A stretch of 64,000 nucleotides of DNA from positions 32,001 to 96,000 of the IMG/VR virus record IMGVR_UViG_3300032030_000005, one strand, 5' to 3'. Each line of letters opens with the position of its first letter. Position 1 is the stretch's first letter. Position numbers and translations under genes: made by a program. The stretch is from a virus (Duplodnaviria; Caudoviricetes). Positions 11,927-60,500 of the stretch are shown here, piece by piece. Under the pieces are notes generated by a model. The model had not been told where the DNA came from. It saw nothing but the letters and a program-made list of their open reading frames with translations, and did not search any database.

Positions 11927-12314
11927 AAAAAAAAGAGCAATACTCGGTTCGATCCGTAGATAGGCTATTGCTCTTTTTTTGCTTGGTCATTATTAGCTTT
12001 TTTAACTGTCCGGATCAGTAGCTAATAATGGAATATCGACTTTGATATTCACCGGGGGCGTTGCTTATTCCTCTTTTTTCAACTGCTCTGCCATGAATAA
12101 CCCTGTTATTCCCACTGTCAGCACATGTGCTGGAAGGCATTTTGCTTGTAGTTAAGAGCCTCGACGTCTTCAAAGGACCGCATAGAAGACCATATCATTT
12201 TAACATATGGTTGTTTCTTCTATTGTTGTAAAACTATGAATAAGGTTAATGTTTTTTGCGCAACAATCTATTCATAAAACCGAGAAAAACATCAATTTCC
12301 TCTTCCTTATTCAT
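11927..12314 (-). ncRNA. Candidate structured ncRNA A (~390 nt)
   Basis: Early-type promoter at 12319-12327 (-). 5' ATGAATAAGG pairs with CCTTATTCAT. GC higher than flanks, several hairpins, no SD-led ORF, terminal stem gagcaata/tattgctc plus U-run. Confidence 0.6.
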
Positions 12315-12345
12315 AAATATAATATATAAATAAAAATATAATCTA

Positions 12346-12759
12346 AAAAAAAAAGAATAACCCAGACTTTTCAACTACGCCTTATGTATCACCGGTCGAT
12401 TACTGCGTGTATTATTCTTTTTTATTATGCGGACGTAAGATATGTATAGGTTCACAGCCGATTACTCGATCTATATAGTACGTATACTATATTATATAGA
12501 ACATGAACCTCACGGTAAATCAATATCTTTACGGAGTACAGAAATAGTACCCATCAGACTCATTTTTTTTTTCTTAAGAAACCTCAGCAAAGACCCTATT
12601 GCTAGATAATTACCTCTAGCTCAGTCTTCATAAGTTACATGTAACCTTAGCGTGTTTGGTTTCGTGTAAAATGGCGAAAAACACAATAATAGCTTCCATT
12701 TATGTTTTACTTATCCAAAAGTCTGGTAAACATCGGGAAGTTCTTCTTGCTATTATCAT
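12346..12759 (-). ncRNA. Candidate structured ncRNA B (~410 nt)
   Basis: Early-type promoter at 12764-12772 (-). 5' ATAATAGC pairs with GCTATTAT. Multiple stems, A-rich linkers, terminal aagaataa/ttattctt stem plus U-run. Confidence 0.6.
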
Positions 12760-12774
12760 AAAAATAATATATAT

Positions 12775-13320
12775 TTATTTTTCCTTAAAGAAAATTTCTT
12801 TAATAAAATATTTACTAAAGTATTTATCAAAGTATTCTATTAATACTGGATCATTAGATTCTTTAATAATACTAGATAATTCTATACTCTTTAAAACCAT
12901 CTTAGCATCCTTATCTTTATCAAACCAGTATATATGAATCTTATCATTAAATACTTTACCATTATATTTACATGTAAATGGATATGTAAATATAATAGGA
13001 TCACCATCTATTGTCTTAGTCATTTCACCTAATTCAAGTACTAATTCTTTACATTTGATATTAATAACTGCTTTACGTTCTTCATCAAATTTAATTAAAT
13101 GTGATTCATAATCATCATCGATCTTCATCCAAGCTTCTGTATGTATAGGTGTTTCTTGATCTTTCTGAAATCCATTAGAAATACCTTCATATTTTTCCTG
13201 AAATACTGATGGTTTTCTAAAAGTATCTATTCTATAAGATACTTTACCATTATCATCTATGACTCTACATACATATATACCTTCTTCACTTGGAAGCTTT
13301 TCTTTTACATGTATAAACAT
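12775..13320 (-). CDS. Hypothetical protein with DUF551-like N-terminus
   Basis: N-terminal FIHVKEKLPSEEGIYVC resembles the common phage WIxVxExLP motif. Confidence 0.5.
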   Translation of the reverse strand: MFIHVKEKLPSEEGIYVCRVIDDNGKVSYRIDTFRKPSVFQEKYEGISNGFQKDQETPIHTEAWMKIDDDYESHLIKFDEERKAVINIKCKELVLELGEMTKTIDGDPIIFTYPFTCKYNGKVFNDKIHIYWFDKDKDAKMVLKSIELSSIIKESNDPVLIEYFDKYFSKYFIKEIFFKEK

Positions 13321-13322
13321 AA

Positions 13323-13691
13323 CTATTTCTCCTTATCTGTTACATTGAGATTAAAAGTTATTGTATTATCCAAGACATTATGGGCGAATTTAAAGACTTT
13401 GTAGTTCTTCAAGATCTCTTCACCTATTGCAGTAGCTAAGTCTTTTAACATATAACTCGGTATCTCATCTTTACTAATATCTTCTAAGTTATTGATTTTC
13501 TTGTATAATTCCGGTTCACAATCTTTAATAAAGCTGATATCATAGTTAATACTAACTGTATTTTCTTTAATATTTTCTTCTTCTTGCATTTCTGTATCCA
13601 TTGGTATATCTTCTTTAAAGAATTCCAGCATTTCATCAAACGCTTCAGCTTCATTATCTTTCTTTTTAATATCAAAAAGTCTTTCAAACAT
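13323..13691 (-). CDS. Hypothetical protein
   Basis: 122-aa ORF with SD, in operon. Confidence 0.6.
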   Translation of the reverse strand: MFERLFDIKKKDNEAEAFDEMLEFFKEDIPMDTEMQEEENIKENTVSINYDISFIKDCEPELYKKINNLEDISKDEIPSYMLKDLATAIGEEILKNYKVFKFAHNVLDNTITFNLNVTDKEK

Positions 13692-13754
13692 ATTCTATCC
13701 CTTCCTATATATAAAATAGCTCTTAAGGAATATTACTTCCTTAAGAGCATGTTA

Positions 13755-15416
13755 TTAAATTATACCTTTGCAAATAAACTGATTAGATGTAACTAAAATA
13801 CCAATAATACTTATAACAGCCTTAAGTATTTCAGTTTCAGTTTTTAATGAATTAACTATTGAAGTTGATTCATCTGGTTCATAAGCTTTAGTTTTAAGAT
13901 TATATATACATTTTTCTTCTACACATTTTTTAATAATTTTATTTATCTCTTTATTTGGAATACCTGCATTTACAAGTACACATTTATAACATTCCATAAA
14001 TGCTTCAGCTATTAAATCTTCAAGAGTTGTTAATAGTTTATAATTCTTAACTACTCTTGCAAATGGAGTATGCTGAATACATTTAGGAATAGCTAAATTA
14101 CCGCCTGAAACATAACCTGTTTCTAATGCTGCCTTACAAGCAAAGATACTATCTTCAATAAGATATCTTCTATTATTCTTTTCTAATTCAGTATCTCCAC
14201 CTACATAATATTTTACAATAGATGAATTAAGATTACCTCTACGAGTCTCTAACTTAAAGATCTTATCATCGAAAGAGTCATCCTTTAATTCCTTAAGCTT
14301 CTCTATCTCTTCTGTAATAAAATCTACTCGTTCAGCAAGTTCTTTATCAGAACACTTTCTACCAATAATCTTAGTAGTCTTATTAGTAATTGAGATCTCA
14401 TCACAAGAGCCTAACATCTTATAGAAGTTTTTCTTAAAGTCTTCTTCTTTCTCAAAGTTCTTATCATAAATAGTGCTTTTTGTAAATAAAGCAATATCTT
14501 TAAATATTTCTTCCTGATTTTTATTCATAAAATTAAAATCAACTAAACAGATCTGAAGATCAGGATTCTGCTTCTTATTAATAATCCAACAAGAAACAAA
14601 TTCTACAGAAAAGCTCTTAGCGATAATAACTACTGGCTTTGTCTGCTGAGATACTAAATGACCTATTACATCTACAATATAATTAAGATCTGTTGAATCA
14701 AGTCTATCATTACACATAAATATAAAAGGATCTTTAACAGAAAATTCTGGCTTATTTTTATTAGTAGTAAATTCTTCTGCAATCATTCCTGATGCAAATT
14801 CAAGACCATTCAAATATTCATAAGAGTCTGTAGAATCTTTAGAATTCTCTAAATAAATAAAGCCTTCCTTACCGATCTTCTTATAAATATCATAAATATT
14901 CTTACCAACTTTTTCATCATTATTATTAGATACTTCCGCTATCTTCTGAATAATGTTAAAATTACTTTCATTAATAGGAGTTGCAAATTGCTTAATATTT
15001 TCGTTAATATAACCTTCTAATTCTTTTAAACCATCGAATATTTCTTTAGGTGCATATCCAGATAATTTACCATTAAGATTATTATTAATAGTATTAAACA
15101 AACTCTCTGCAATAACTACTGATGATGTACTACCATCACCAACAGTCTGTACTAAATTAAAAGAAATCTTTTTAATAATTTCATAAATAGTTCTTGCTAC
15201 CGGGCTTTCAAATCTTAAGCTAGATAAAATAGTATAACCATCCTTAGTAGCAATATGACCACTTATTTTATCTTCAATAATTGTTGAAGAACCATAATAA
15301 CCTAATGACTTTCTAAGGCTATCTGCTATAACCTTAAGAGTCATTGATGAAAGATCTTTATAATCTTTTTCTTTTACAATATTATCACTTTTACTATATA
15401 CTATATTATTTTCCAT
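13755..15416 (-). CDS. groEL: Phage GroEL-like chaperonin
   Basis: 553 aa; TKDGYTIL, VGDGSTS (GDGTTT-like), YYVGGDTELE, GYVSGG motifs. Confidence 0.9.
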   Translation of the reverse strand: MENNIVYSKSDNIVKEKDYKDLSSMTLKVIADSLRKSLGYYGSSTIIEDKISGHIATKDGYTILSSLRFESPVARTIYEIIKKISFNLVQTVGDGSTSSVVIAESLFNTINNNLNGKLSGYAPKEIFDGLKELEGYINENIKQFATPINESNFNIIQKIAEVSNNNDEKVGKNIYDIYKKIGKEGFIYLENSKDSTDSYEYLNGLEFASGMIAEEFTTNKNKPEFSVKDPFIFMCNDRLDSTDLNYIVDVIGHLVSQQTKPVVIIAKSFSVEFVSCWIINKKQNPDLQICLVDFNFMNKNQEEIFKDIALFTKSTIYDKNFEKEEDFKKNFYKMLGSCDEISITNKTTKIIGRKCSDKELAERVDFITEEIEKLKELKDDSFDDKIFKLETRRGNLNSSIVKYYVGGDTELEKNNRRYLIEDSIFACKAALETGYVSGGNLAIPKCIQHTPFARVVKNYKLLTTLEDLIAEAFMECYKCVLVNAGIPNKEINKIIKKCVEEKCIYNLKTKAYEPDESTSIVNSLKTETEILKAVISIIGILVTSNQFICKGII

Positions 15417-15430
15417 AATATGTTTACTCC

Positions 15431-15799
15431 TTAATTTTTTAAAATGATAAATGTGTATTTATTATTATCTTTCGTAATATTAAAAATACCATTCAAATCA
15501 TATTTATCTATTAGTTCATCAATAGTATTATCTATATTAAATACTATCTTCTCAAAATTACAAATCATCGCATCTGTTGACTCACAATCATATCCTTCAA
15601 CTACACTATAATCTATATTTTCTGATCTAAATATATTTACTAATTTATTAAATTCATATCCATTCTTTTTATCTAAGGATTCTATAAAGTTATTTAAATC
15701 AGCACTATATTGATTTTCGATTTGTTCTTCTTCATTTATTACCTGATTTGATGGTTGTATAAGATCATTATAATAAAAATAAATCATAAAATCAACCAA
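15431..15799 (-). CDS. Hypothetical protein
   Basis: 122-aa acidic ORF upstream of the chaperonin. Confidence 0.55.
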   Translation of the reverse strand: MVDFMIYFYYNDLIQPSNQVINEEEQIENQYSADLNNFIESLDKKNGYEFNKLVNIFRSENIDYSVVEGYDCESTDAMICNFEKIVFNIDNTIDELIDKYDLNGIFNITKDNNKYTFIILKN

Positions 15800-15822
15800 C
15801 TTTCATAAATATATGCCCAACC

Positions 15823-16080
15823 TTATTTCTTATTAGATGCTAAGTTGTTAAGCTTAGCATTCTCGGCTTCTATACGTTTTCTGTCTAATTCCATTTTTTC
15901 TTCTTTAGCTTCTTTTAAAGATAGTAATACTGAATAATCCATTTGCATCATTTCAGTAATACTTATTTTACCTTCAAATAAGTCTAATAAATATAGTAAG
16001 AAATTAGCACTATTTTTATATTTCTCTTTTAATAATAAGTTGCCTTCTAAATCTTTGCTTACTGGTTGAGCATTAGACGA
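15823..16080 (-). CDS. -1 frame extension of the gp26-like protein (tail assembly chaperone GT/gp51-like domain)
   Basis: 85 open codons (SSNAQPVSKD...LLDLFEGKISITEMMQMDYSVLLSLKEAKEE...NKK) in the -1 frame, with no start codon before the conserved-looking part. Overlaps CTTTTTC at 16079-16085. Confidence 0.6.
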   Translation of the reverse strand, partial: SSNAQPVSKDLEGNLLLKEKYKNSANFLLYLLDLFEGKISITEMMQMDYSVLLSLKEAKEEKMELDRKRIEAENAKLNNLASNKK

Positions 16081-17282
16081 AAAAGCACATTTTCCATATC
16101 TACCGGCATTTCACCAAGATCTTTTCCACATGAAGGACATTTAAAGTTAGGAATTCTATATTCTGTCTTGTATTTATTTGTCCATTCATCAATAGCTCTT
16201 GCTAACTGCTTTGAATCATTAATAGATAACTGCTTAAGAATCTTAATAATCTTTTCATTACCTGATACTGGATAATAAACAGGACTCTTCTTTTCAAGAG
16301 TTTCTGGTACATTAAGAAGATAAACATTCTTTATAAATAAAAGTGTAGCTAAATCACTAGCTAAGCTTTCAAGCTGATCTGTAGGTGTTGACTTTAAGAT
16401 ATCAAGCTGATTCTTAAGAGATGGTACTCGAATATCAATAATAGTCTTTGACTGCTCTAAGCATACTCTCTTATGTTCAGAAAGTAAAGAAGCCTTAATA
16501 ACAGCATCTGAATTATCAGCTGTCATAGCAATTTCATTTAATCTTTCAAAGATAGCTTCATCCTTACTAAATACAAGACTATCATTTGGAATATCATGTG
16601 AAAATTCATGTTCACAATGTACACACTTAAAATCAAACTTTGTACTACCTGGGAATGTCTGCATATGTAAACCATAGAATAAAGACTGAAGATCAAAGAA
16701 TGATGTACATTCACAGAATGTATCAAAATTAATTGGTCCAATACTTGTAGCCTGAATTCTATTATGAATAATCTGATAAATCTTCAATGTACTATGATAT
16801 TCATCCATTGTAGAATTTGTAATAGCATCAATATCATCAAACTTAAGAGCATTCATATAAGCTACATAACAACTCTGTGGAAGTGGTACTTGGAATGTAG
16901 GTGTTGAATTAAAAATTAAATCTAAATTACTATGCTTTTCAAGACTATTAAGTGAATCTGAAATTATAATATTATTTAAATCAATATTCATTGTAGGAAG
17001 AAGTTCATTAATCTGAACCTTCATATCATTCATTACATCATGCTTTGGACTAAGATTAAGAGGATCTGGATTAACATCTTCCTTTTGAGTGATAATATCC
17101 TTTGCTGAAAGACTCTTTGATGATTTTCTCTTAGTTGGTACATTATTACCTTTAGTCTTAACACTAAGATCTAATTCACCTTTAAGTTCTTTTTTAGCAT
17201 TTTCCATAGCTTCAAACATTTCTTGATTAACCTGAACTTCAGGTACTATATCATTTTGATCAAAATTAACTTTCTTGCCCAT
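16059..17282 (-). CDS. T4 gp26-like baseplate hub / tail assembly chaperone with Zn ribbon
   Basis: VPLPQS motif, two CxxC pairs (CVHC, CPSC), adjacent to the gp25-like gene. Confidence 0.65.
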   Translation of the reverse strand: MGKKVNFDQNDIVPEVQVNQEMFEAMENAKKELKGELDLSVKTKGNNVPTKRKSSKSLSAKDIITQKEDVNPDPLNLSPKHDVMNDMKVQINELLPTMNIDLNNIIISDSLNSLEKHSNLDLIFNSTPTFQVPLPQSCYVAYMNALKFDDIDAITNSTMDEYHSTLKIYQIIHNRIQATSIGPINFDTFCECTSFFDLQSLFYGLHMQTFPGSTKFDFKCVHCEHEFSHDIPNDSLVFSKDEAIFERLNEIAMTADNSDAVIKASLLSEHKRVCLEQSKTIIDIRVPSLKNQLDILKSTPTDQLESLASDLATLLFIKNVYLLNVPETLEKKSPVYYPVSGNEKIIKILKQLSINDSKQLARAIDEWTNKYKTEYRIPNFKCPSCGKDLGEMPVDMENVLFRLMLNQ

Positions 17283-17305
17283 ATTAGTTTATTCCTTTCT
17301 TATTA

Positions 17306-17950
17306 TTATAGATCCATCTTAGAAATTATTTTACTATTAGATGAATCTCCTGTATAAAATAGACTAAGTTTATATTCTTCTGAATTTCCATTTGGATTAG
17401 TATCATATACTGTAAAAAATATAGCAACTGTAATATATTTATTATCAGAACTTCTTAAAAATTCTATTTCTTGTTTAGTAGATATATTTGTATTAATTAA
17501 ATCTTTATTTAACCATTTAGTCATTTGATTATTAATATTAGTATTAAGTTCTGATTTTAAACCTTGTGTAGCTAATTCAAATAAATAATTTTCAATACCT
17601 ACACCAAAGTCTGGATTATTAGGATATGTACCCGGTTTAGTAACTAAAATATTTTGAATCATTCTAGCTACTGCTTCTTTACCTGATGTACCTTTTAATT
17701 TTTTAAATTCCGAAATATTTAGTGTTACATCTCTTATCTCTGTAGGAGTATTATTTTTCATTACAGCTTCTTTACCGGCTTTTACCATATCTTGAATCTT
17801 TTTATTAGCTTCATCTAAACTATTTTGCCGATATATTTCATAAACGTCACTTACATTTAAATGACCATTTGAATAAGCTCTATTTATAGCATCTATATAA
17901 GACTGATCGAATTCTCTAACTCCTATATTATTTGTGTTATCATTAGGCAT
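17306..17950 (-). CDS. Baseplate wedge protein, gp25/GPW-like
   Basis: IQNILVTKPGTYPNNPDFGVGIENYLFE signature. Confidence 0.85.
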   Translation of the reverse strand: MPNDNTNNIGVREFDQSYIDAINRAYSNGHLNVSDVYEIYRQNSLDEANKKIQDMVKAGKEAVMKNNTPTEIRDVTLNISEFKKLKGTSGKEAVARMIQNILVTKPGTYPNNPDFGVGIENYLFELATQGLKSELNTNINNQMTKWLNKDLINTNISTKQEIEFLRSSDNKYITVAIFFTVYDTNPNGNSEEYKLSLFYTGDSSNSKIISKMDL

Positions 17951-18090
17951 TTTATATCACCTCATTTTTTAACTTATTAATATAGTTTATTTATACCTTT
18001 ATGTTAGTTATAGTATTAAAAATTAAAATTTTTAATTTTTTTAAAAAAGAAATTTATTAAATAATAATTATTTATTAAGGAGGGAAAAAT

Positions 18091-19452
18091 ATGAGTGAAA
18101 TAATAGAAAATATAATTGATGAAAATGAAAAAAATAAAAATACTAAAGAAAGAATTAGTGATATTAAAGCTTCCTTAGAATATACAGTTTCAGATGATGA
18201 AATTAATAATATCAATAATTTAAAAAATATTGTTGAAGATTCTACTATACCTAGAAAATATACATATGTGCCTAAATTAACAGCTATATTTTCAGATGGT
18301 ACTGTATATGATTTATTACAATATACTACAATAGTTCAAACTGAAATTAATTTAGATATATATGTGTTTCCATTAATATCTGTTAGATTAGATGTTCCAG
18401 TAGAATTAGTACCTAAGATTCAATTTGATGATGACTTAGTTATTAATTATGAATTGATGTACAATGCCAATACAGATTTAGATACAGCAACAATGTATAA
18501 TATATTATGGAATATTAATCTTAAAAAAGTTAAACAAGAAAGTTCACCTATTATGATGAATGAAATATTCTATAAGGAAGTATCTGAAGAAATTAGAAGA
18601 GTTCCTTTAGAATTAAAACTAATACCAGAAGATTGTTTAAATGCTAATAAGATATTATTCTCAGGTGTATATAGTAAATGTGATATGGTTCAAATGTTAA
18701 CTTTATTAACTGAAAAATTAAATTATAAAACTTATATATCAAGACCAGATAATATTAGAAAGTATAATCAAGTAATATTTCCACCTTGTAATATATTTTA
18801 TGGTATTGAATATTTGGATCAATATTATGGATTATATGATAGAGGATTAAAGATGTTTTATGGTTTTGGAAATAGTGTCATAATGTCAAAGAATCATTAT
18901 ATAGAAACTGGTATGAATAAAGTTAAAGTATCATTTGCTCAAAATAATAATGGTTATGATATTTATAATTATACTAATGGTGGTATAGAGCAATTAGGTA
19001 GTGACTATTATATATCAATAACTCCTAATAAAGTTAAGATTTTAGATAAAAGACATTATATGAAAGAGACTTTAGGTACTATAGTAACAACTTATTCAAG
19101 AGATGATCATGTATATTTTGAACAAGCAAGAGAATATGATTATACAGAAAAAGAAGATATTATAGAAAAAGTTAAATCATATGTAAACCAATATAATAAT
19201 ACAAATAAAGAAAAAGAATATTTATTAAGATCTGTATATTCAAGACAAATAGAATTAATGCTTGAAGGTGCTTTATTACCACCAGATGGATGGTTTAAAG
19301 TATTTGATATTAATTTTGATTCTAATAATTATAATTCTTTAAATGGTCTTTATTGTATGCATGGTTATTATTTTAGATTAGCTAAAATTAGTAATAAAAA
19401 TAGTACAAGAGGTTTTGATGTTACTTCTGCTATAGAATTAACTGAAATATAA
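18091..19452 (+). CDS. Putative virion structural protein (possible baseplate hub)
   Basis: 453-aa beta-rich ORF divergent from baseplate genes. Hub call is tentative. Confidence 0.4.
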   Translation: MSEIIENIIDENEKNKNTKERISDIKASLEYTVSDDEINNINNLKNIVEDSTIPRKYTYVPKLTAIFSDGTVYDLLQYTTIVQTEINLDIYVFPLISVRLDVPVELVPKIQFDDDLVINYELMYNANTDLDTATMYNILWNINLKKVKQESSPIMMNEIFYKEVSEEIRRVPLELKLIPEDCLNANKILFSGVYSKCDMVQMLTLLTEKLNYKTYISRPDNIRKYNQVIFPPCNIFYGIEYLDQYYGLYDRGLKMFYGFGNSVIMSKNHYIETGMNKVKVSFAQNNNGYDIYNYTNGGIEQLGSDYYISITPNKVKILDKRHYMKETLGTIVTTYSRDDHVYFEQAREYDYTEKEDIIEKVKSYVNQYNNTNKEKEYLLRSVYSRQIELMLEGALLPPDGWFKVFDINFDSNNYNSLNGLYCMHGYYFRLAKISNKNSTRGFDVTSAIELTEI

Positions 19453-19496
19453 AAAAATTGAGTAAAAACCTATATAGGTTTTTACTCAAAATAATA

Positions 19497-20042
19497 TTAA
19501 TCTTTATACCAGTTGGCGAGTCTATGCTTATCTGTGCCAAAGTTATCTTTACCCTGATTGATAAAGACTTCTTCAACTTCTCCGGTCTTATAATTAAGCA
19601 TTTCACATTTCTGCTGATAGTTATATTCTACAATAGCATTTGTCTGATCTGCTGCAAAGTATACTTTTTCACCATTAGTTCTATCTACGATACCAACAAT
19701 ATTTTCACTAACTGCTTCAGCATTATTTAAATCATAACGTTCACAGTCATATACCTGAACTGTTGATGTATAAATATCAGATATACTACACCAATCCATT
19801 CTCCATTTTACTTCATCATAGATTCTAAGTAAATCATTCTTCTTATACTGAGGCTTAGTCGGATCTTTAATATATTCGATCAAATCATCTCTATCTAATA
19901 AATCATTACCTGATTCTACTAATGGCTTATGCTTCTGAACTAATAATAATTCATAAGGCTTATACTTATCAAAATAATTAAATACGTTCTTATCGATCTT
20001 AGGGCTATTAGTTATAATACTTATAATTTCAGCTGCTGTCAT
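19497..20042 (-). CDS. Hypothetical protein
   Basis: GAAAGGA SD before ATG 20042 removes the overlap with 20098+. Late-type promoter at 20068-20079. Confidence 0.6.
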   Translation of the reverse strand: MTAAEIISIITNSPKIDKNVFNYFDKYKPYELLLVQKHKPLVESGNDLLDRDDLIEYIKDPTKPQYKKNDLLRIYDEVKWRMDWCSISDIYTSTVQVYDCERYDLNNAEAVSENIVGIVDRTNGEKVYFAADQTNAIVEYNYQQKCEMLNYKTGEVEEVFINQGKDNFGTDKHRLANWYKD

Positions 20043-20097
20043 AATATCATTCCTTTCTATAGAAATATAACCATTTGTTAAAAGGAGGCAAACTAAT

Positions 20098-20565
20098 ATG
20101 AATATAGAAATTTTAAAATTCAAAATAACTGATTATAAAGATAAAGTTATCCCAAAAAAATTATTTAGAAAAGAAAAAATAGTTAAAGAAGAAATATCAT
20201 ATGAAATTAAATTATCATATAATTTAGATGAAGATAGATTTTATTATGAGGATGAAAATAAATTAATCCCTACTAAAAAAGATTTATCAAGATCTATATT
20301 AATGTTATATGATATTTATAAGAGATATGAGAAGTTTGGTTATGCAGAAAATTTTATATTATCCAAAAATAATTTAGGAGTATTTCTTAAGAATTTCTTT
20401 ATATGTAATAATGATGAAAATGATAGTTATTTAAAAAGAATGATTTTTGGAACTCAGCCTATTAATATAATGCTTATTAATAGTGTTTTAGATGAATTAA
20501 ATATCAAAGATGTAGATTTTACTAATTACTATTATTATCAGTATCCTACTATAAAATTTAGATAA
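20098..20565 (+). CDS. Hypothetical protein
   Basis: AGGAGG SD; 155 aa. Confidence 0.65.
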   Translation: MNIEILKFKITDYKDKVIPKKLFRKEKIVKEEISYEIKLSYNLDEDRFYYEDENKLIPTKKDLSRSILMLYDIYKRYEKFGYAENFILSKNNLGVFLKNFFICNNDENDSYLKRMIFGTQPINIMLINSVLDELNIKDVDFTNYYYYQYPTIKFR

Positions 20566-20798
20566 AAAAAAATGCTAGACGTAATGTTACATGTAACATT
20601 ACGTCTAGCTCCCGTTAATAGACTCGATATATGCTATATGCACTATTAACCATACTAAGCCTTTCAGTAGTAAACTACCCTCGGAGATTAATAGAACATT
20701 ACATACTCTATCTATTCACAATTATAATATATATTTAAAATAATGAGTTAATACGGTTTATAATAAAAGTTATATACATTCCTACTATAAAATTTAGA
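20544..20798 (+). repeat. 19-bp direct repeat TCCTACTATAAAATTTAGA at 20544-20562 and 20780-20798
   Basis: Exact duplicate of the 3' end of the 20098 gene, flanking ncRNA unit C. Confidence 0.85.
20564..20719 (-). ncRNA. Candidate ncRNA C (~155 nt)
   Basis: Early-type promoter at 20724-20732 (-). gttaatag/ctattaac stem and long perfect terminator palindrome 20574-20609 plus U-run. Confidence 0.55.
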
Positions 20799-20804
20799 CA
20801 AAAC

Positions 20805-21057
20805 AAAAAAAAAATAAGTACAACAATGTACTTATTTTTTTTTTCTCTATTTCGCAAGAAACGTTGCTTCACAGCAAGGCTAGACAAGCAAGCATAGAGA
20901 GGCACTCTTGTTCTTTTTTCAATGGTCTACAAGGAAAAGACCCTGACATATTATGAACAACTGAATAAAATATTATTTATAAGTAAGTGTATACTATACA
21001 CTTACTTTCTGGAGGACTTTTGAAGAGAATATAAGGGGGATATATTCTCTTCATCAC
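20805..21057 (-). ncRNA. Candidate ncRNA E (~250 nt) with C-rich loop and CCUCC linker
   Basis: Early-type promoter at 21062-21070 (-). 5' hairpin tgaagagaatata-TCCCCCT-tatattctcttca, linker GTCCTCC, second hairpin, terminator aaataagtaca/tgtacttattt. Confidence 0.6.
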
Positions 21058-21136
21058 AATTATAATATATATTTGAAAATTACATTTAAAACAGAAATTA
21101 TATCCCTAAAGGTTATTAACCTTTAGGGATATAATT

Positions 21137-22291
21137 TTAAATAAATAAATCGTCACCTGGATTGCTTGTTGCATCATATTTAGGAACGACATCTTGTCTA
21201 TTATCAGGATTATAATTACTTTCAAGACTGTTTGAAGTACTCATATCTTCCTGTTTTAATGTAGTAATTGTTTGATGTTCTGTCTGTCTTACGTCATCAT
21301 CAAGAGCTTTTGCAAGTTTCTTAACTGTATCCGCAGCCTTAAGCTTTCTTTTAGCAACTGCCTGATCATGTTTACTATTAGAAAGAGCTACAGCATCTGC
21401 TTCCATAGTCATAGAAAGATATTTTAATGATTCTGCAATATCATTCTTCTTGAAGTAGAACCAGCAAATAAATACTCTAATTAAATAGATAGCTGCAACA
21501 ATGGCTGTACCAACTAATGCAATACCAGCTGTAGCAGCAAGAACCGGATGAGCACCAGCACCAGCTGTAACAATTTGACCTAAAGTACCAACAATTGAAG
21601 CTCCTTCTGGAACTGCTTCATTATAAACCATTTCATATTCTTCAACTTTTCTTTCAAAAGTTTCATTAAGAGTAAGTTTATTATTTCTACAAAGATCGTT
21701 AAACTTTTCAAGATTTTTAAATAAAATATTTTTCTTTAATGAGTTTGTCGGTGGATCTCTATAAATTAAAAGATTATCTTCAGTAATAGAAATACAATTA
21801 ATAAATACAATTGATGTTGCATCCATAACAGCTAATGATACTGTCTGATATAAAAGAATATTAACACTATCGTTTGTATCATAAGCTTTTTCAAAATACT
21901 TAATATTCTTTTCAAGATTATTCATAGCAGTTTCAACAATATGAAATGCTGTTACAGCTTCTACTGTATTTTTACCCTTAGCTTTTTCAAGCATAGGCTT
22001 TAAAACTGATAAACACTTCTTAGTAATCTTATAAGCCTTAGACTTAGTAATATTACCTCTTGTTTGTGGTAAATCTAAGAAAGCACCTTTCTTATTTAAT
22101 GCTTGAAGACGCTTTTCTGATTTCTTCATAGCTATAGAACCAACTTTATCAGCTAATCCTATTTTTTGTGCTTCAGTTAAACTATTTAAAAATTTATCTG
22201 ATACTACAAAAGAATTTGTATCTAAATAATTTTCTTTTAATACAGCTTCTAATGTAAATCTATCAGGAGTCATATTCATTATATAAGCCAT
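21137..22291 (-). CDS. Putative virion protein with transmembrane segment
   Basis: Hydrophobic stretch VLAATAGIALVGTAIVAAIYLIRVFICWFYF; late operon. Confidence 0.5.
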   Translation of the reverse strand: MAYIMNMTPDRFTLEAVLKENYLDTNSFVVSDKFLNSLTEAQKIGLADKVGSIAMKKSEKRLQALNKKGAFLDLPQTRGNITKSKAYKITKKCLSVLKPMLEKAKGKNTVEAVTAFHIVETAMNNLEKNIKYFEKAYDTNDSVNILLYQTVSLAVMDATSIVFINCISITEDNLLIYRDPPTNSLKKNILFKNLEKFNDLCRNNKLTLNETFERKVEEYEMVYNEAVPEGASIVGTLGQIVTAGAGAHPVLAATAGIALVGTAIVAAIYLIRVFICWFYFKKNDIAESLKYLSMTMEADAVALSNSKHDQAVAKRKLKAADTVKKLAKALDDDVRQTEHQTITTLKQEDMSTSNSLESNYNPDNRQDVVPKYDATSNPGDDLFI

Positions 22292-22309
22292 TTTTTACAC
22301 CCCTCTCTA

Positions 22310-23683
22310 TTATCTACCAAATAATGACTTAAGATCATCTAAGTTAAGAGGCTTCGGCTTCTTCTGTCTCTTAAATGCTTCAAGCTTTTTAACGATATAA
22401 TGACCAGATGGCTCATCATAAATATATACTGTATTTGTAGATTCATCAATATAACCAAAATTTAATAAATATAATTGATCTAATAAATTCTGAGCAAATT
22501 TAGGTAATGTTAAATCAACCTTATATGTATTAGCTATATAATCTACTTCATCTTTAGAAACCATTAATGTAGCAACCTTAATAGGAGCATCTAAAGAATG
22601 ATTTGATAATCTGGTTGCTTTATTCATAGCTCTAAGCTTCTTTAATTTAAACCACCAATAGTTAGATGATTTAGCGGCCTGAATACCAGTATTCTTCATG
22701 TTTGTAAAGTCAAATAAGAATTCAAATAAACCTTTAGCAAAATTATATTCACCAGTAGTCCATTTAATAAATCTGAAGAAACCAGTATTCTTATATGAGT
22801 TACCAATATTAAAGATGATATCTTCTGATTTAATAGGATGAGCTACACATTTAACACCAAAGATAACTTCTTTTTCATCAAGAGATGATCTAGACATGCC
22901 ATATGATGGATTCTTTTCATTTCTAGAACCAATATTAAAAATAGATTTACCATCAGTTCCTGGAATTGGAATACCTATACCTGCAGAAACTGAATTCTGC
23001 ACAGAGTTGGCTACAGAAATTCTAACTTTTAAAAACGTTGGCTGTAAATCATTAACCTTTTTAAACATATCTGGATCAAATACATTCTTATCAGAGAATG
23101 TAGCTGTTGATGAGCTAGAAGTTGTTTGCTTAACAGAATAACTAAAAGGTCCAATATCATTAGTTGATTCCCATGAATTATCTGTTTTATTAACAATTGT
23201 TCCGTTTGGAGTATCATCTTTGGCTTCTTTTAAGTATTTAGGTAAAGTAGTTTCATTTAAAGACCATTTACAGAATTTATCTTCAACTGGAATTAATGAA
23301 GATTGAAGAGCAGAATTAATAGATTCTTCAAATAATGCTGGTGTTCTCATAATTTGAGAATTTGGTCCACCTTCAATATTAGTATGTACAAGTTTTAATG
23401 CTGATAAAAGATCGCCAGTACCATTAGTTAATTTACCAAAATCATTTTGAAGTAAAAGTCTAAGCATAATAGTATTTTCAACTTCAAAACCATCAGCTAA
23501 TGCAGTTGCTGCATCAACCGAAATATTTTGACTTATTAATAATGGAAATTGTAATATATAATCTTTAGCTAACATTTTAAGAGATTGACCATTTGGCATT
23601 GTTTGTTTATAATCTCTAGATGTTGTTGCTCTCATTGTCATATAACGATCTAAGATATTATTAAAAGCTCCCATAAAATTCAT
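22310..23683 (-). CDS. Putative virion structural protein
   Basis: 457 aa; late-type promoter at 23703-23714. Confidence 0.5.
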   Translation of the reverse strand: MNFMGAFNNILDRYMTMRATTSRDYKQTMPNGQSLKMLAKDYILQFPLLISQNISVDAATALADGFEVENTIMLRLLLQNDFGKLTNGTGDLLSALKLVHTNIEGGPNSQIMRTPALFEESINSALQSSLIPVEDKFCKWSLNETTLPKYLKEAKDDTPNGTIVNKTDNSWESTNDIGPFSYSVKQTTSSSSTATFSDKNVFDPDMFKKVNDLQPTFLKVRISVANSVQNSVSAGIGIPIPGTDGKSIFNIGSRNEKNPSYGMSRSSLDEKEVIFGVKCVAHPIKSEDIIFNIGNSYKNTGFFRFIKWTTGEYNFAKGLFEFLFDFTNMKNTGIQAAKSSNYWWFKLKKLRAMNKATRLSNHSLDAPIKVATLMVSKDEVDYIANTYKVDLTLPKFAQNLLDQLYLLNFGYIDESTNTVYIYDEPSGHYIVKKLEAFKRQKKPKPLNLDDLKSLFGR

Positions 23684-23732
23684 TCCTTTCTATTAAAAAA
23701 TATAAATGGTTGTTAATAGTGTATTATTAATG

Positions 23733-24088
23733 AAAAAAAAAATAATTAACCCTATAAAGGGAGGCTAAGTAGTATTGCATACTTAGCCTAAACAAAAATT
23801 AATATCAGAGGCCCACAACAATACTTAAATTGTTTACAGTTTATTTTTAATTGAAAAAGTTTTAATTAAATACCTAATAAAATTCCAATGATGAGCTTAT
23901 AAATTAAACTAGCCATGTTATAAAACCTCTCAATTAAATAAATTGAGATTAATATTAGTGAGAGAGCATTGGTTTACTTCTGTAATATATTGTATCTGTA
24001 GGAACAAACTATCTTAAAAGATATCAAACATATCTCCTACTGGGCTTGACGACTAGTGAAGCATGGTTCATCACCCACTAATCTCTAC
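23733..24088 (-). ncRNA. Candidate structured RNA D (~355 nt) containing a 16-codon hydrophobic ORF
   Basis: Early-type promoter at 24093-24101 (-). 5' attagtg/cactaat closing stem, 3' aggctaagta/tacttagcct hairpin and U-run. ORF 23866-23916 encodes MASLIYKLIIGILLGI after GAGAGG. Confidence 0.5.
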
Positions 24089-24168
24089 TATAATAATATA
24101 TATTTAAAGATTTTTATGTAAAACAACAACCTAATATTAAATTTATATATAGAAGAAGGTGATTTAAT

Positions 24169-25920
24169 ATGAGAAATGCTGCTGATATTTTAAAAGAACG
24201 TTATATTGATGAAGTTAATATATATGATAATTTTAATCCATATAGAATTAAAGAAAATGTAGAGCCTTTTATGGGAGGATTACCTATAATATTTATGACT
24301 ACACCTTCAATGTCAATTATTGATGGAGATGCTGTATACGAAAATTTAGCATTGGTAAATCCTTTATTTACATTATTAGAAACAACTGATTTTAATTTAT
24401 TAAAAGGACTTCAATATGGTGAAGGTGGTACTAATTCACCTTTTATTAAAATATTAACAAATAGATTTAAAGGTATAACTCTTAAAGACTTTGTTATGAG
24501 CACAACAGACGAGCATGAAACATATTATGGTTGGAAACAAATTCTTCCGGGATCAACAGTTGAAAACTTTACGGCTGAAGGATCTTTGATAGTAACATTT
24601 TCTGAAACTAAAAACTTAGATATTACTAAATATAATTATGCTTGGATGAATTATATAGAAGCTGTTAGATATGGTACTTATGAACCAAAAGCTTCAACAA
24701 GAAGTACCAGAACTTTAGATTTTACATCTTCATTATATTTCTTCTTATTAGACTTTGATATGAGAACGATATTATATTTCTGCAAATATACTGGTGTATA
24801 TCCAACAAATGTTCCATTAGGAAGTACTATTATTAGTGATAATATATCTACAACTAAAAATATGATTGATTCTCCTATTACATTTGCATATCAATATAAA
24901 GAAGAAATGAATCCACAAATATTATATGATTTTAATATAGTATCTGAAGATCCAGGTAGTTTATTTAAAAATCTTAAACATGGTGAAGATGGTACTCCAA
25001 GTTTATATGGTGGTTTTAAACAATATAATCCTACTGATTATATGATAACTAGTACACTTAATATAGAAGATAAAAAAGATAATAGTTCGACAAATGCTCT
25101 TTTAGATGATGGTAGAGATTATTTATATGTAAAGAATTATAACACACCTGTAATAAGAATGGCTAATGAAGAAAGTTATGATTCTAATAGTCAGACTAGC
25201 TTTAATAGTGCAGAAACTAATAAAACTACATTTGTAATGGAATTCTTAAATACTAATGAAAAAGCTACTGCTGCAAGTATCTTTAATGATGGTACATCTA
25301 GTAATGGTGCTGCATATAAGTCTTCAGCTCTTAGTGAATTAAAGAATAAAATTCGTGGAGAAGCTTTAGCATTATTAGCATCTACAGTAGGTAAATCATT
25401 CTCCAGTGTTGATGATTTAAATACTCATAGAGAAATTTATGAATTATGGTTAGAAAATGTTAATGGTGGAGATATTAAAGATGCTAAAGATGTTGATTGG
25501 AGTGATAATCCAGTTTATGCATCTGAAGAAGCTTATGAATATGCTAAAGAATGTTGGAAACAACAAGTAGAACGAGAAGGTTTGCAAGAAGGTACAGTAG
25601 AATATGAAGAAAGATATGCTGAATTAGAAAAAGACTATTGGAATATTAATTCTGGTGGTCTTCAATATGAATTAGGTGAAGATGGTGAAAAATTATCAGC
25701 TGGATATGAAGATGGTGACTTTGAACAATGGATGCAAGAATATAGTAAATACGAAAATCCAGAAAAATATCAGGAATTAGTTACATTAGTTAATAAAGCT
25801 AAAGAAAAAACTAATGAAGAATATCAGGCTAGTGTTGATAGATCTAAATACGATACATATGCCAATCAATCAGCTGAAGAATTTGCTAATTTATATGGTG
25901 AATTCTATGGAGTAATTTAA
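24169..25920 (+). CDS. Tail tube-fold baseplate protein (gp48/gp54-like) with acidic C-terminal extension
   Basis: LIVTFSET...AWMNYI...YTGVYPTNVP...ITFAY pattern of tube-like proteins. Late-type promoter at 24125-24136. Confidence 0.6.
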   Translation: MRNAADILKERYIDEVNIYDNFNPYRIKENVEPFMGGLPIIFMTTPSMSIIDGDAVYENLALVNPLFTLLETTDFNLLKGLQYGEGGTNSPFIKILTNRFKGITLKDFVMSTTDEHETYYGWKQILPGSTVENFTAEGSLIVTFSETKNLDITKYNYAWMNYIEAVRYGTYEPKASTRSTRTLDFTSSLYFFLLDFDMRTILYFCKYTGVYPTNVPLGSTIISDNISTTKNMIDSPITFAYQYKEEMNPQILYDFNIVSEDPGSLFKNLKHGEDGTPSLYGGFKQYNPTDYMITSTLNIEDKKDNSSTNALLDDGRDYLYVKNYNTPVIRMANEESYDSNSQTSFNSAETNKTTFVMEFLNTNEKATAASIFNDGTSSNGAAYKSSALSELKNKIRGEALALLASTVGKSFSSVDDLNTHREIYELWLENVNGGDIKDAKDVDWSDNPVYASEEAYEYAKECWKQQVEREGLQEGTVEYEERYAELEKDYWNINSGGLQYELGEDGEKLSAGYEDGDFEQWMQEYSKYENPEKYQELVTLVNKAKEKTNEEYQASVDRSKYDTYANQSAEEFANLYGEFYGVI

Positions 25921-57511: not shown

Positions 57512-60500
57512 TTAGTACATTTCTTTGATTTGTCGTTTAAGTTCTATAAGTGCTTTAGACGCATATCCCATGATAAAAATATCCAATGTCATACGTGAAT
57601 TTATACTAAGAGGGCTTAATATACCTTCAATTATTTCATCTTGTCTATAATCTGAATATGGTTCTTCACCTTTTTCAAGAACTCTAGAAACGATGGTTTT
57701 AAGCGCAGTACCGTAGATTATTTTATCACCAACACCTAATTCCTGATAGTATTCGATAAAGAATTCAAACATTACACCATCTACAAGATCTTCACCTTTA
57801 ATTTTATCTTCTTTCTGAATATCTATAATAGGTGCATTAAGACTATCAAAACCACTACCTTTATATTTTTCGATAAGGTTCTTTCTAGTCTTCTTACTAT
57901 TAATATAAGACTTAATAATATTCTGTAAACTTTCAGAATATTCGTTAATCTCATTTGTATAATATATATTAATCTTTGTTACTACACCTGTGTATTTACA
58001 CTTTAATTCATTTTTAGCCATTTCAGCAATGTTTTCTACAAATTCATCACCGATTTTACCAAGAATATCATTAATAGATTCATCATTAAACGCATTTTCA
58101 AATACTAATAATGGTTCATTAGTCTTGATATGCTGACCTTCTTTAGCTATATAACTTACTGTAGCATTTTTATCTAATATTTTAGTCTTTCTCATTGTTA
58201 CTTTAGTTGCCATAGCTTCGGATAATGTTTCTGTAATCATAGAAGAGTCTTCAAGTGTAAAGTCTCCTGATGTTATGGCTATTTTACTTAATCTACCAAG
58301 ACAATATGTAATATCGTCCTTTTTACCGTCTCCCTTAAAGAAGTTAGGGTTTTTAGCTAAAATAGCACCTTTAACGAATTTATCTCCTTCATTATATAAC
58401 ATTTCGAATTCCTGTCCAATAAAGAAACCACCATTAGAGTTATTACATTCAACTATATCTAAATCTATTAAATCCTGTTTACCAGATTTATATTTTATAA
58501 TAGCTACTTTATTCTTAGTATCTATTTTTTCAACTACACCGTCTTCTTTAGCTTTAAATGCAAATTCATCAGAGATCATATATGGAACAGTCTTTTCAAT
58601 ACCACTACCAATAATAGGAGGTCTTTGATCTAATACTGATACGATGTGTTTCTGTTGTACAGACTGCATTGAAATACGTGGAGAGTCAGCGTGAGTAGTT
58701 GTAGCCGGGTTAAGTAATTCGGATACATCATACTGTGTTGTATTACCGTTACCAGATTTATTACTTGGGTCCACAAAGCCATAGATGTTTGTAATTTTAG
58801 GGTCATATGTCAGTTGTCGAACAATGCCTACCTGATTACCTTCAGGTGTATTTAATGATATTAATCCCTTCATGTTCTCATTGTAACCACGTACTCGTTT
58901 AGTATATGCTTCACTTACATTAATACCTGCTAATCCCTTCATAGAAGCATTACCAGTTTTCTCCAATTCAAGAGAAGGATTTAAACTTGAATAGTTTTCA
59001 ATAGTTTTAAGTTCCATCAATTTTTTAGTAAGAATATCTGGATCAACTGTAATCTTTACAGGGTTTTTAGCATGTTTAGAGTCTTTATAATGTTTAAATG
59101 CATCTGCTAATACTTTATACATCATAGCAGGAACTTGTTCAGCACCACGAATTCTAAAATTATTAACATCTGTAGGTTCTGTAAATGAAATATCTTCAAG
59201 TAATGTATTAGCATATAATAATACATCATATACATTTGTAGGAAGATTTAATTCTTCTAAGATATCTCTTGTAATAGGATCTATTAATAATGAAATAGAG
59301 TTATGGAAACCTTTAGCAGCATTTCGTGAATTAAATGCATCACCAAAGTAATCTATATATGGATCTTTAGTATTCATATCTGCAAAGACTATTTCTTCAC
59401 AATCCATTTCTAATAATCCTGATAATAACATACTATTTCTAATCTTAGAAGTATCATAATAAAGATAACCATCTTTAAATTTAATTTTACCAATATCATC
59501 TTGGATATTAATAGATTTATTCTTTTCTTCAAATGTATATTCAATATTATATCTTTCTAAAAGATTTAATAATCCTAATTCATATCCTAATAAAACTGCT
59601 ATAGGAAGTGTTTTATTATTGATTTCCATTCTTGAATATGTTAATTTATTATTTGTTTTAATCTTAGTAGATGATAAATCCTTTACCTTATCAGTTGTTA
59701 CTTCATTGATTAAAGTAATAATCCACGATGATAATGTAGTATCTAAATTCTCATAATTCTTTCCATCATAAAGATATATCTTTTTATCAACAATATTAGA
59801 AAGTATTAATTTTTTCTTATCACTTGTATGACCTAACATGAAGTATTCTTTTTTATCAAAGGTTGCTTTAACAGAAAGCTTTTCATCATATTTAGGCTTA
59901 TTTATATCAAGCATATTTTGTACCGTCTGTTGGTCGAAGATTAATTTATAATTTTCAACATCTAAGCTATAAAGATAAGTAGATATATCACAATATTCTG
60001 ATGATACAGTATACTTACCATTATTCTTAATTGAGTTACCTAATTTATAATCAAAGGTAACTCCTTGTTTTTTATATTTTAATAAATTATGCTTAGTAAA
60101 TAAAGTTTTAAGATATGTTAACTTTTCACTAAACTTTTGACCAAATCTAGTAATAAAGTGCTTATTATAGTTAGTTGTAATCTGTACTCTGTCTGGTTCT
60201 AATTTAACGATAGGCATAAATACAATCTGTTTCATAATAATCTTTTTATTACCATTTACATACATGAATTTACCATCTTTGATTTCTGGTATATTTACTT
60301 TGAATTTATGTGCTACACCTGTATCATCTTTAAATTCAATTTCAAGTAATTGCTGTTTATTCATATCTGTATTATTTGGTTTAAGATCTATCTTATTAAC
60401 ATATACACCAATATCATTATCATTATTAAATGCTTTAAATACTTTAATCATATCCTGATTAAATTTCTTATTCATATAAGAATTATCATAATCTGTTAAA

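Follow-up and report, generated by a model that had tools for sequence, protein, structure and literature searches.

The window analysed here is a stretch of 64,000 nucleotides (nt), bases 32,001-96,000 of the single 305,865-bp contig of the phage record IMGVR_UViG_3300032030_000005, with a G+C content of 27% and a coding density of about 92% under genetic code 11. On its minus strand, between positions 11,927 and 24,088, lie five short units (A to E) that begin at a predicted early promoter, end at a stem followed by a run of U, and contain no conventional protein gene. An initial annotation had interpreted all of them as early structured non-coding RNAs (ncRNAs). Coordinates are those of the window unless they are preceded by G000 (the phage's own genome) or by an L-number (a locus of a relative or strain); G003 is a complete related phage. 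The units and their promoters are the following:

12312-12327, minus strand: promoter of unit A, exact motif; predicted transcription start (+1) at the G in 12312.
11935-12312, minus strand: unit A, predicted non-coding structured RNA of about 378 nt.
12757-12772, minus strand: promoter of unit B, exact motif; predicted +1 at the G in 12757.
12345-12757, minus strand: unit B, predicted non-coding structured RNA of about 413 nt; no open reading frame (ORF) with a ribosome-binding site.
21055-21070, minus strand: promoter of unit C, exact motif; predicted +1 at the G in 21055.
20805-21055, minus strand: unit C, predicted ORF-free transcript of about 251 nt, a chain of hairpins.
20717-20732, minus strand: promoter of unit D, with a ACCGTATTAA element upstream; predicted +1 at the G in 20717.
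20570-20717, minus strand: unit D, predicted ORF-free transcript of about 148 nt, with a 16-bp terminator at 20609-20574.
24086-24101, minus strand: promoter of unit E, exact motif; predicted +1 at the A in 24086.
23740-24086, minus strand: unit E, predicted early transcript of about 347 nt.

The structural proteins of the phage are about 28% identical to those of the Bacillus phages AR9, PBS1 and their kin, and a chaperonin and a gp25-like baseplate protein are also encoded. Two beta-like (Rpb2_6-like) and one beta'-like (Rpb1_2-like) RNA polymerase (RNAP) modules were found in the genome, all of them above the Pfam cut-offs:

57512-61690 (minus strand), G000 23673-24911 and G000 136797-137234: beta-like or beta'-like RNAP modules (Pfam).

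One of these modules sits within the 1,392-aa (amino acid) ORF of the window. On the basis of the structural protein matches and the three modules, the phage can be assigned to the AR9/PBS1-like jumbo phages that encode their own multisubunit RNA polymerases.

The motif ATATATTAT-N4-RTR is present in 16 copies in the window, compared with 1.23 ± 1.08 copies in shuffled sequences, and 16 copies were reached in none of 100 shuffles. The whole 305,865-bp genome contains 49 copies. In AR9, the mapped early promoter is AAATATATATTAT-(6N)-G+1, which is used by the injected virion RNAP without new protein synthesis (PMC5312081). The motif of the window matches this promoter in consensus and spacing when compared with Table S2 of the AR9 study (PMC5312081), and the predicted +1 of each unit is therefore the last base (G or A) of the motif as it was initially described. 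All five copies fit ATATATTAT-N4-RT-G/A and lie on the minus strand where the initial annotation had located them, at 12327-12312, 12772-12757, 20732-20717, 21070-21055 and 24101-24086. A start with A, as predicted for unit E, is found in three AR9 early promoters, and the ACCGTATTAA element seen upstream of unit D is present in many of them (PMC5312081). Judged by its sequence, the motif is a real early promoter of the AR9 type, predicted to be used by the virion RNAP. Since the start mapped in AR9 falls on the G of the ATG or GTG inside the motif, this triplet was ruled out as the start codon of a leaderless ORF. For most other intergenic early promoters of the genome, an ORF with AAGGAGG ahead of it follows after 17-135 nt; in real early genes this sequence stands 5-9 nt before the start codon.

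From the predicted +1, the next same-strand ORF of at least 60 aa lies 403-932 nt away in units A to E, and a run of at least seven U is reached after 145-403 nt in all five. The ORF-free intervals of 150-410 nt ending in a stem plus a U-run that had been reported were thus borne out, with predicted lengths of 148-413 nt. The terminator scan recognised only the end of D as canonical; in the sequence itself, A, B, C and E can be seen to end in an A-tract, a stem and a U-run with larger loops. No ribosome-binding site comparable in strength to AAGGAGG precedes any ORF of at least 8 aa in A to D, and six-frame fragments of the units compared with the relatives and with the own genome revealed no protein remnants. 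Genome-wide, roughly 8-11 early promoters lack a sizeable ORF, and about one fifth of the intergenic ones lack an ORF of at least 60 aa.

Folding of the single sequences gave z-scores of -3.5 (A), -0.6 (B), -8.6 (C), -6.7 (D) and -3.2 (E). The G+C content was clearly raised only in A (38%, within the top 2.5% of genome windows), weakly in B and not in C, D or E. A helix at or near +1, which the initial annotation had regarded as a mark of these units, turned out to be a general trait of the early transcripts of this phage, since it was found in 32% of the other 50 early transcripts and in 10% of shuffles. Agreement was obtained on the lack of tRNA, tmRNA, RNase P or signal recognition particle (SRP) RNA identity: Rfam 15 at the gathering threshold gave no match in the window (6S, tmRNA, RNase P, SRP, riboswitches, ROOL, GOLLD and pRNA included), only terminator-like hairpins scored at expectation values up to 10, and ARAGORN found neither a tRNA nor a tmRNA in the window. 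Searches for paralogues of the units in the whole genome with blastn and nhmmer matched promoter and terminator parts only, a megablast search of the INPHARED phage records gave no match, and exact-word scans gave none in viral contigs and none for B in genome contigs.

A sister strain (L031) was reached through cluster members of the neighbouring proteins. It is a 2,321-nt contig from another metagenome that aligns to positions 13830-11533 with 87% identity. The flanking genes are 94-98% identical between both strains (83-96% at third codon positions), with no indels in 369 and 546 nt. Unit A shows 75.9% identity and 15 gap columns, which is below the third-codon-position identity of the flanking genes, and unit B shows 84.9% identity and 98 gap columns. 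The lengths of these indels break any reading frame, and the large ones fall in hairpin loops. Since the flanking genes are free of indels, A and B are read from the alignment as non-coding. The promoters and U-runs of both units have all been kept in L031, while their bodies diverge at or above the synonymous rate. In the promoter of A the core, the N6 spacer and the +1 G are identical, with two substitutions just upstream of the core, and in that of B the core and the +1 G are retained. A 147-aa gene call over unit A in L031 was discarded as spurious, because it needs TGA to be read as Trp and runs through the terminator into the next gene.

The covariation of A and B was evaluated in one two-sequence alignment for each, formed by this phage and L031. 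The RNAalifold consensus of unit A comprises 82 pairs, 12 of them compensated on both sides and none broken. Column shuffles yielded 4.4 ± 2.0 compensatory pairs, with 12 reached in 0 of 200, and a consensus energy of -32.8 ± 4.9 kcal/mol compared with -61.9 kcal/mol for the real alignment. When the structure was derived from one sequence only, 9 compensatory pairs were found against 2.9 expected (P about 0.003) and 22 broken pairs against 32 expected. No compensatory pair was left when the 3' partner was slid by 1-3 columns. Compensated pairs occur in at least six helices, and one long-range helix spans about 130 nt. Hairpins that contain such pairs are:

11988-12050, minus strand: two adjacent hairpins of A, 12050-12044/12037-12031 (7 bp, three compensatory pairs) and 12030-12022/11996-11988 (two compensatory pairs).
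12182-12223, minus strand: hairpin of A with two compensatory pairs and one wobble change.

The G-U pairs of A and its G-C to G-U changes fit the transcribed strand. The C-run of this unit is not conserved, as GCCCCCG is replaced in L031. Altogether, the prediction that unit A is a structured RNA is well supported.

For unit B the consensus contains 91 pairs, seven compensated on both sides and one broken. Column shuffles gave 1.5 ± 1.2 compensatory pairs, seven being reached in 0 of 150, and the consensus energy was -56.9 kcal/mol compared with -39.3 ± 4.6 kcal/mol in shuffles. With the structure derived from one sequence only, the excess of compensatory pairs was marginal (3 against 1.0 expected, P about 0.07-0.11) and 15 broken pairs were found against 20 expected (P about 0.04); sliding the 3' partner by 1-3 columns left 0-1 compensatory pairs. 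Two elements of B are described:

12448-12510, minus strand: helix of B, 12510-12501/12458-12448, with two adjacent compensatory pairs.
12349-12423, minus strand: terminator stem of B, 17 pairs around a variable insert, followed by U10.

Compared with L031, the terminator stem shows one compensatory change from A-U to G-C and two wobble changes, and a 14-nt inner hairpin is missing from L031. The prediction of a structured RNA is moderately supported for B. The reverse-complement alignments folded nearly as well as the direct ones (-55.4 against -61.9 kcal/mol for A and -54.2 against -56.9 kcal/mol for B), so the transcribed strand of both units was assigned from their promoters. A common origin of A and B, whose 5' parts look alike in layout, was not supported, because a covariance model built from the 5' domain of A found only this domain and not B. 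The covariation among homologues that the initial annotation had looked to was found for A (12 pairs) and B (7 pairs), with two sequences for each.

Unit C begins with a 13-bp hairpin with the loop UCCCCCU, contains an unpaired GUCCUCC and finishes with an A10-stem-U10 terminator able to act in both directions. CCCCC is rare in this genome, with 13 strand-specific sites. The single 22-mer match found for C by the exact-word scans was rejected as a chance event, since it lies inside a 775-aa ORF of a metagenome-assembled genome with 63% G+C and has no flanking similarity. The cassette that contains D is bracketed by two copies of a direct repeat, a signature of insertion or duplication:

20544-20562, no strand assigned: 19-bp direct repeat, copy 1, which forms the final 19 nt of a 155-aa gene.
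20780-20798, no strand assigned: 19-bp direct repeat, copy 2.

The 155-aa gene is encoded on the plus strand and has no U-run past the hairpin of unit D (20574-20845, plus strand). Its transcripts may run antisense through all of D up to the bidirectional terminator of C.

The distribution of the units was analysed in contigs that keep the gene order of the window with 50-73% protein identity (L002, L005, L006, L010 and L011). The junction that holds A and B measures 886 nt in this phage and 84-113 nt in the relatives, where it contains only a terminator, and the junction that holds C and D measures 571 nt compared with about 40 nt. These short junctions indicate that A to D are insertions specific to this lineage, each with its own promoter and terminator between genes that are adjacent in the five relatives. 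Searches of the relatives' loci with blastn and nhmmer revealed no homologue of A to D, and when A+B and C+D were compared by BLAST with five related IMG/VR records (two complete ones among them), only promoters matched. In L008 and L009, the C/D junction holds one cassette in which an extended early promoter and a terminator enclose about 190 nt of unrelated sequence (L008:1586-1800 and L009:1585-1796). This other cassette has a fold z-score of -5.2, and the five differences between its two copies are in loops or compatible with wobble pairing. According to the gene tables, a reverse-strand gene directly follows the 181-aa gene in one close strain, and a near-identical sister contig of 306,119 bp has the same gaps, with one additional nucleotide at C/D. 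A cluster member (P0050) was discarded as unrelated to the 384-aa protein.

Unit E differs from the others in that its site holds a gene in four relatives. There, an early promoter is followed by a leader of about 115 nt, a strong ribosome-binding site, an ORF of 35-61 aa, a terminator and a late promoter. The small early protein (MVFK...CLISLILDH) is encoded at L002:8323-8508, L005:3278-3430, L010:8291-8452 and L006:8340-8447. In its mRNA, the ribosome-binding site can pair with the upstream anti-Shine-Dalgarno (anti-SD) sequence CUCUUUCC, a segment for which GGAAAGGAG at the 5' end could be a competing partner. In the phage under study the promoter has been kept, the leader measures 170 nt and an ORF of only 16 codons is similar to the hydrophobic C-terminus of this small protein. 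The late promoter, whose consensus in AR9 is AACA-N6-TA (PMC5312081), is also kept in the relatives. The corresponding features are:

23866-23916, minus strand: 16-codon ORF MASLIYKLIIGILLGI; its weak ribosome-binding site, GAGAGG, is enclosed in a hairpin.
23703-23714, minus strand: AR9-type late promoter AACA-N6-TA, directly past the terminator of unit E and ahead of the gene of a 457-aa virion protein.

The 16-codon ORF lacks the LDH end, and neither the length of 35-61 aa nor the strong ribosome-binding site followed by a protein ending in L(I/V)LDH was found. Unit E is probably a truncated or decaying small-protein gene, or a small mRNA, rather than a dedicated ncRNA. The initial interpretation as structured ncRNAs is consequently supported for A and, moderately, for B, which are non-coding and have compensatory pairs relative to L031, and it is not supported for E, the counterpart of a small gene in relatives.

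We consider it somewhat more probable than its opposite that A to D are autonomous early transcription units producing stand-alone, cassette-like ncRNAs, and that E is left over from a conserved early gene for a small protein under translational control. The injected virion RNAP would start at the G located six bases past the ATATATTAT core and would stop at the hairpin and U-run, yielding RNAs of about 378, 413, 251 and 148 nt from A to D. A and B would be multi-helix RNAs under selection on secondary structure rather than on sequence. The four units would behave as RNA 'morons', varying between strains and inserted where related phages have only short gaps between genes. They appear flanked by sequences repeated across the genome, namely an extended early promoter of about 50 nt and terminator or gene-end sequences, and these repeats could mediate gain, loss and exchange of cassettes by recombination. 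The RNAs would be made early and be stable, C and D may be functional RNAs rather than insulators, and all of them would most likely act in trans in the first minutes of infection, binding, sequestering or redirecting a host or phage protein or RNA in host takeover or counter-defence.

Several observations weigh against this interpretation. The covariation of A and B comes from only two sequences per RNA, and both B and the L031 copy of A (z = -0.6 in each case) fold alone no better than shuffles. The structure of C and D is backed only by fold z-scores, which owe their size to perfect hairpins, possibly ordinary terminators, and no homologues of either were found with blastn and nhmmer on the relatives' loci or with BLAST on the five IMG/VR records. 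Gene-free early units are far fewer in the complete relative G003 (one or two), so such units are dispensable for phages of this kind. Near their 5' ends, A and B also have purine-rich stretches with short ORFs behind them, and no particular target is indicated. Finally, A and B lie on the same strand as, and upstream of, a 231-aa gene that has no recognisable promoter of its own, which makes a role in cis possible.

Such a role is the main rival explanation, although an unlikely one. The units would be cis-acting leaders or attenuators: A and B would form long structured 5' leaders of the riboswitch, protein-dependent attenuator or antitermination type, with terminators that gate read-through into the downstream 231-aa and 129-aa genes, and E would be a leader that controls the translation of its small ORF. 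Besides the position of A and B, immediately ahead of the 231-aa gene on its strand, this is favoured by the spacer of 50 nt past terminator A, which is nearly identical in L031 and has neither the early nor the late promoter consensus. The relatives' copy of this gene is also placed right behind a terminator, so read-through would be its normal route of expression. One 5' segment of B has two conserved alternative partners, one of them in the terminator stem, and the leader at the E site of the relatives pairs its anti-SD with the ribosome-binding site; early 5' untranslated regions (UTRs) of up to 340 nt are known in AR9 (PMC5312081). However, C and D have no downstream gene on the same strand and run into the 3' end of a convergent gene, the relatives express the same 228-231-aa gene without such a leader, two tandem promoter-terminator units would be odd as a single leader, and no known riboswitch or leader family was matched.

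It is slightly less likely still that the units are mRNAs for tiny peptides, with the peptide or its translation as the output: the 16-aa ORF of E, ORFs of 6-12 codons at the 5' ends of A and B, and a 25-codon ORF from an AUG at +2 in C. The ribosome-binding site of E and the match of its ORF to the C-terminus of the relatives' small protein fit this explanation, as do GGAAGAGGAA located six bases ahead of an AUG in A in both strains, the series AUG-UUU-ACC-AGA-CUU-UUG of B, also present in both, and the mini-ORFs behind strong ribosome-binding sites in some other gene-free early units of the genome. Nevertheless, the mini-ORF of A differs between strains (6 and 8 codons, with only MF in common), the conserved codons of B double as a strand of a conserved helix, the ribosome-binding sites are far weaker than the AAGGAGG of real genes, and no candidate ORF is present in D. 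Peptides would also leave 12 and 7 compensatory pairs, spread over about 400 nt, unaccounted for. About equally improbable is that the units are by-products without RNA function, such as orphan promoters and terminators that recombination left behind, transcriptional insulators separating convergent or tandem operons, or DNA elements such as replication origins primed by transcription and protein-binding palindromes. Restriction to one lineage, variation between strains and flanking repeats would fit this, as would the divergence of A at about the neutral rate, the makeup of C (mostly perfect hairpins in series, with a bidirectional terminator) and the reverse-complement alignments of A and B, which fold almost as well as the direct ones. 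Against this, neutral DNA would not retain 12 and 7 compensated pairs, some in helices 130-290 nt apart, the G-U pairs and G-C to G-U changes suit the transcribed strand, and promoter cores and U-runs have been kept while the bodies drift.

If A to D are stand-alone ncRNAs, a bolder extension, which we regard as tentative and rather doubtful, is that A and B, and perhaps C and D, found new families of large, fast-evolving structured RNAs that an injected viral RNAP makes as infection begins, within minutes. They would serve as decoys or sponges directed at host defence or host gene expression and, recombining through the repeated early-promoter and terminator flanks, would form a swappable, RNA-only accessory genome in jumbo phages. 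The early timing (predicted), the restriction to one lineage and the turnover of cassettes are the pattern expected of arms-race functions, and this pattern makes A and B concrete candidates for RNA-based host takeover or counter-defence. The sequence alone, combined with the promoter mapped in AR9, would delimit whole RNA genes in an uncultured phage.

Phage ncRNAs are poorly charted, and in jumbo phages that encode RNAPs they are known mainly from the transcript maps of a few Pseudomonas phages. In 201phi2-1 and phiKZ, small RNAs (sRNAs) detected by ONT-cappable-seq have a terminator soon after the start site and are intergenic or located in a 5' UTR; 201phi2-1 has 11 of them, three intergenic (PMC11512511). 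These sRNAs are shorter than 250 nt, were found by transcriptomics and include one conserved across genera (PMC11512511), whereas A and B measure about 380-410 nt, belong to one lineage and are predicted from sequence, with support from covariation rather than from expression. AR9 shares with the phage described here the early consensus, the ACCGTATTAA element, the late promoter and some long 5' UTRs, but all early starts mapped in AR9 were attributed to protein genes, with UTRs of 26-340 nt, and stand-alone early ncRNAs were not described (PMC5312081); the proteins of both phages are only about 28% identical. Units for ncRNAs in RNAP-encoding jumbo phages are therefore already known, and what stands out here is the unusual size of A and B, their covariation, the early promoter and the cassette behaviour.

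Phage morons and prophage regulatory RNAs (DicF, IpeX, AgvB/AsxR) are accessory, strain-variable modules with their own promoter and terminator, placed between genes that adjoin each other in relatives. Protein-coding genes in temperate phages are the cargo of classical morons, whereas the predicted cargo of A to D is ncRNA, driven by a phage-specific early promoter in a jumbo phage of lytic type. Like A and B, the ROOL and GOLLD RNAs of phages and Firmicutes have many helices over several hundred nt and can be phage-borne, but A and B are smaller, have no Rfam match, lie away from the tRNA cluster and have no relatives outside one lineage. In Firmicutes, sRNAs with C-rich loops (RsaE/RoxS, RNAIII) pair with ribosome-binding sites. 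Unit C resembles the RsaE/RoxS type by its UCCCCCU hairpin loop and its unpaired GUCCUCC; a conserved unpaired C-rich motif, as found in that type, is lacking in A because its C-run is replaced in L031.

Other observations were made outside the five units. The tRNA cluster of this phage is located outside the window (G000 193209-196230) and contains eight tRNAs (Lys, Tyr, Asp, Met, Glu, Asn, Leu and Gln) interleaved with ORF-free stretches of 500-700 nt with raised G+C. Four large intergenic gaps, also outside the window (G000 163282-163616, 207820-208331, 235544-235931 and 296023-296194), share a non-coding repeat family of about 100-290 nt with 74-87% identity that is unrelated to units A to E; introns, mobile elements or RNAs are conceivable. 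In G003 (L036-L049), a 5' leader (about 160-180 nt) that begins with GAAUAAAGUA and ends with UUGGAGUUUGUAUGUUCC is conserved in at least six early genes (starts at 79846, 82634, 83409, 147356, 178302 and 258914); it is possibly the early-UTR motif of AR9. In addition, a gene similar to HicA toxins is located just past the chaperonin gene in one relative (L002:18165-18356), at a place where the phage described here has a 122-aa ORF.

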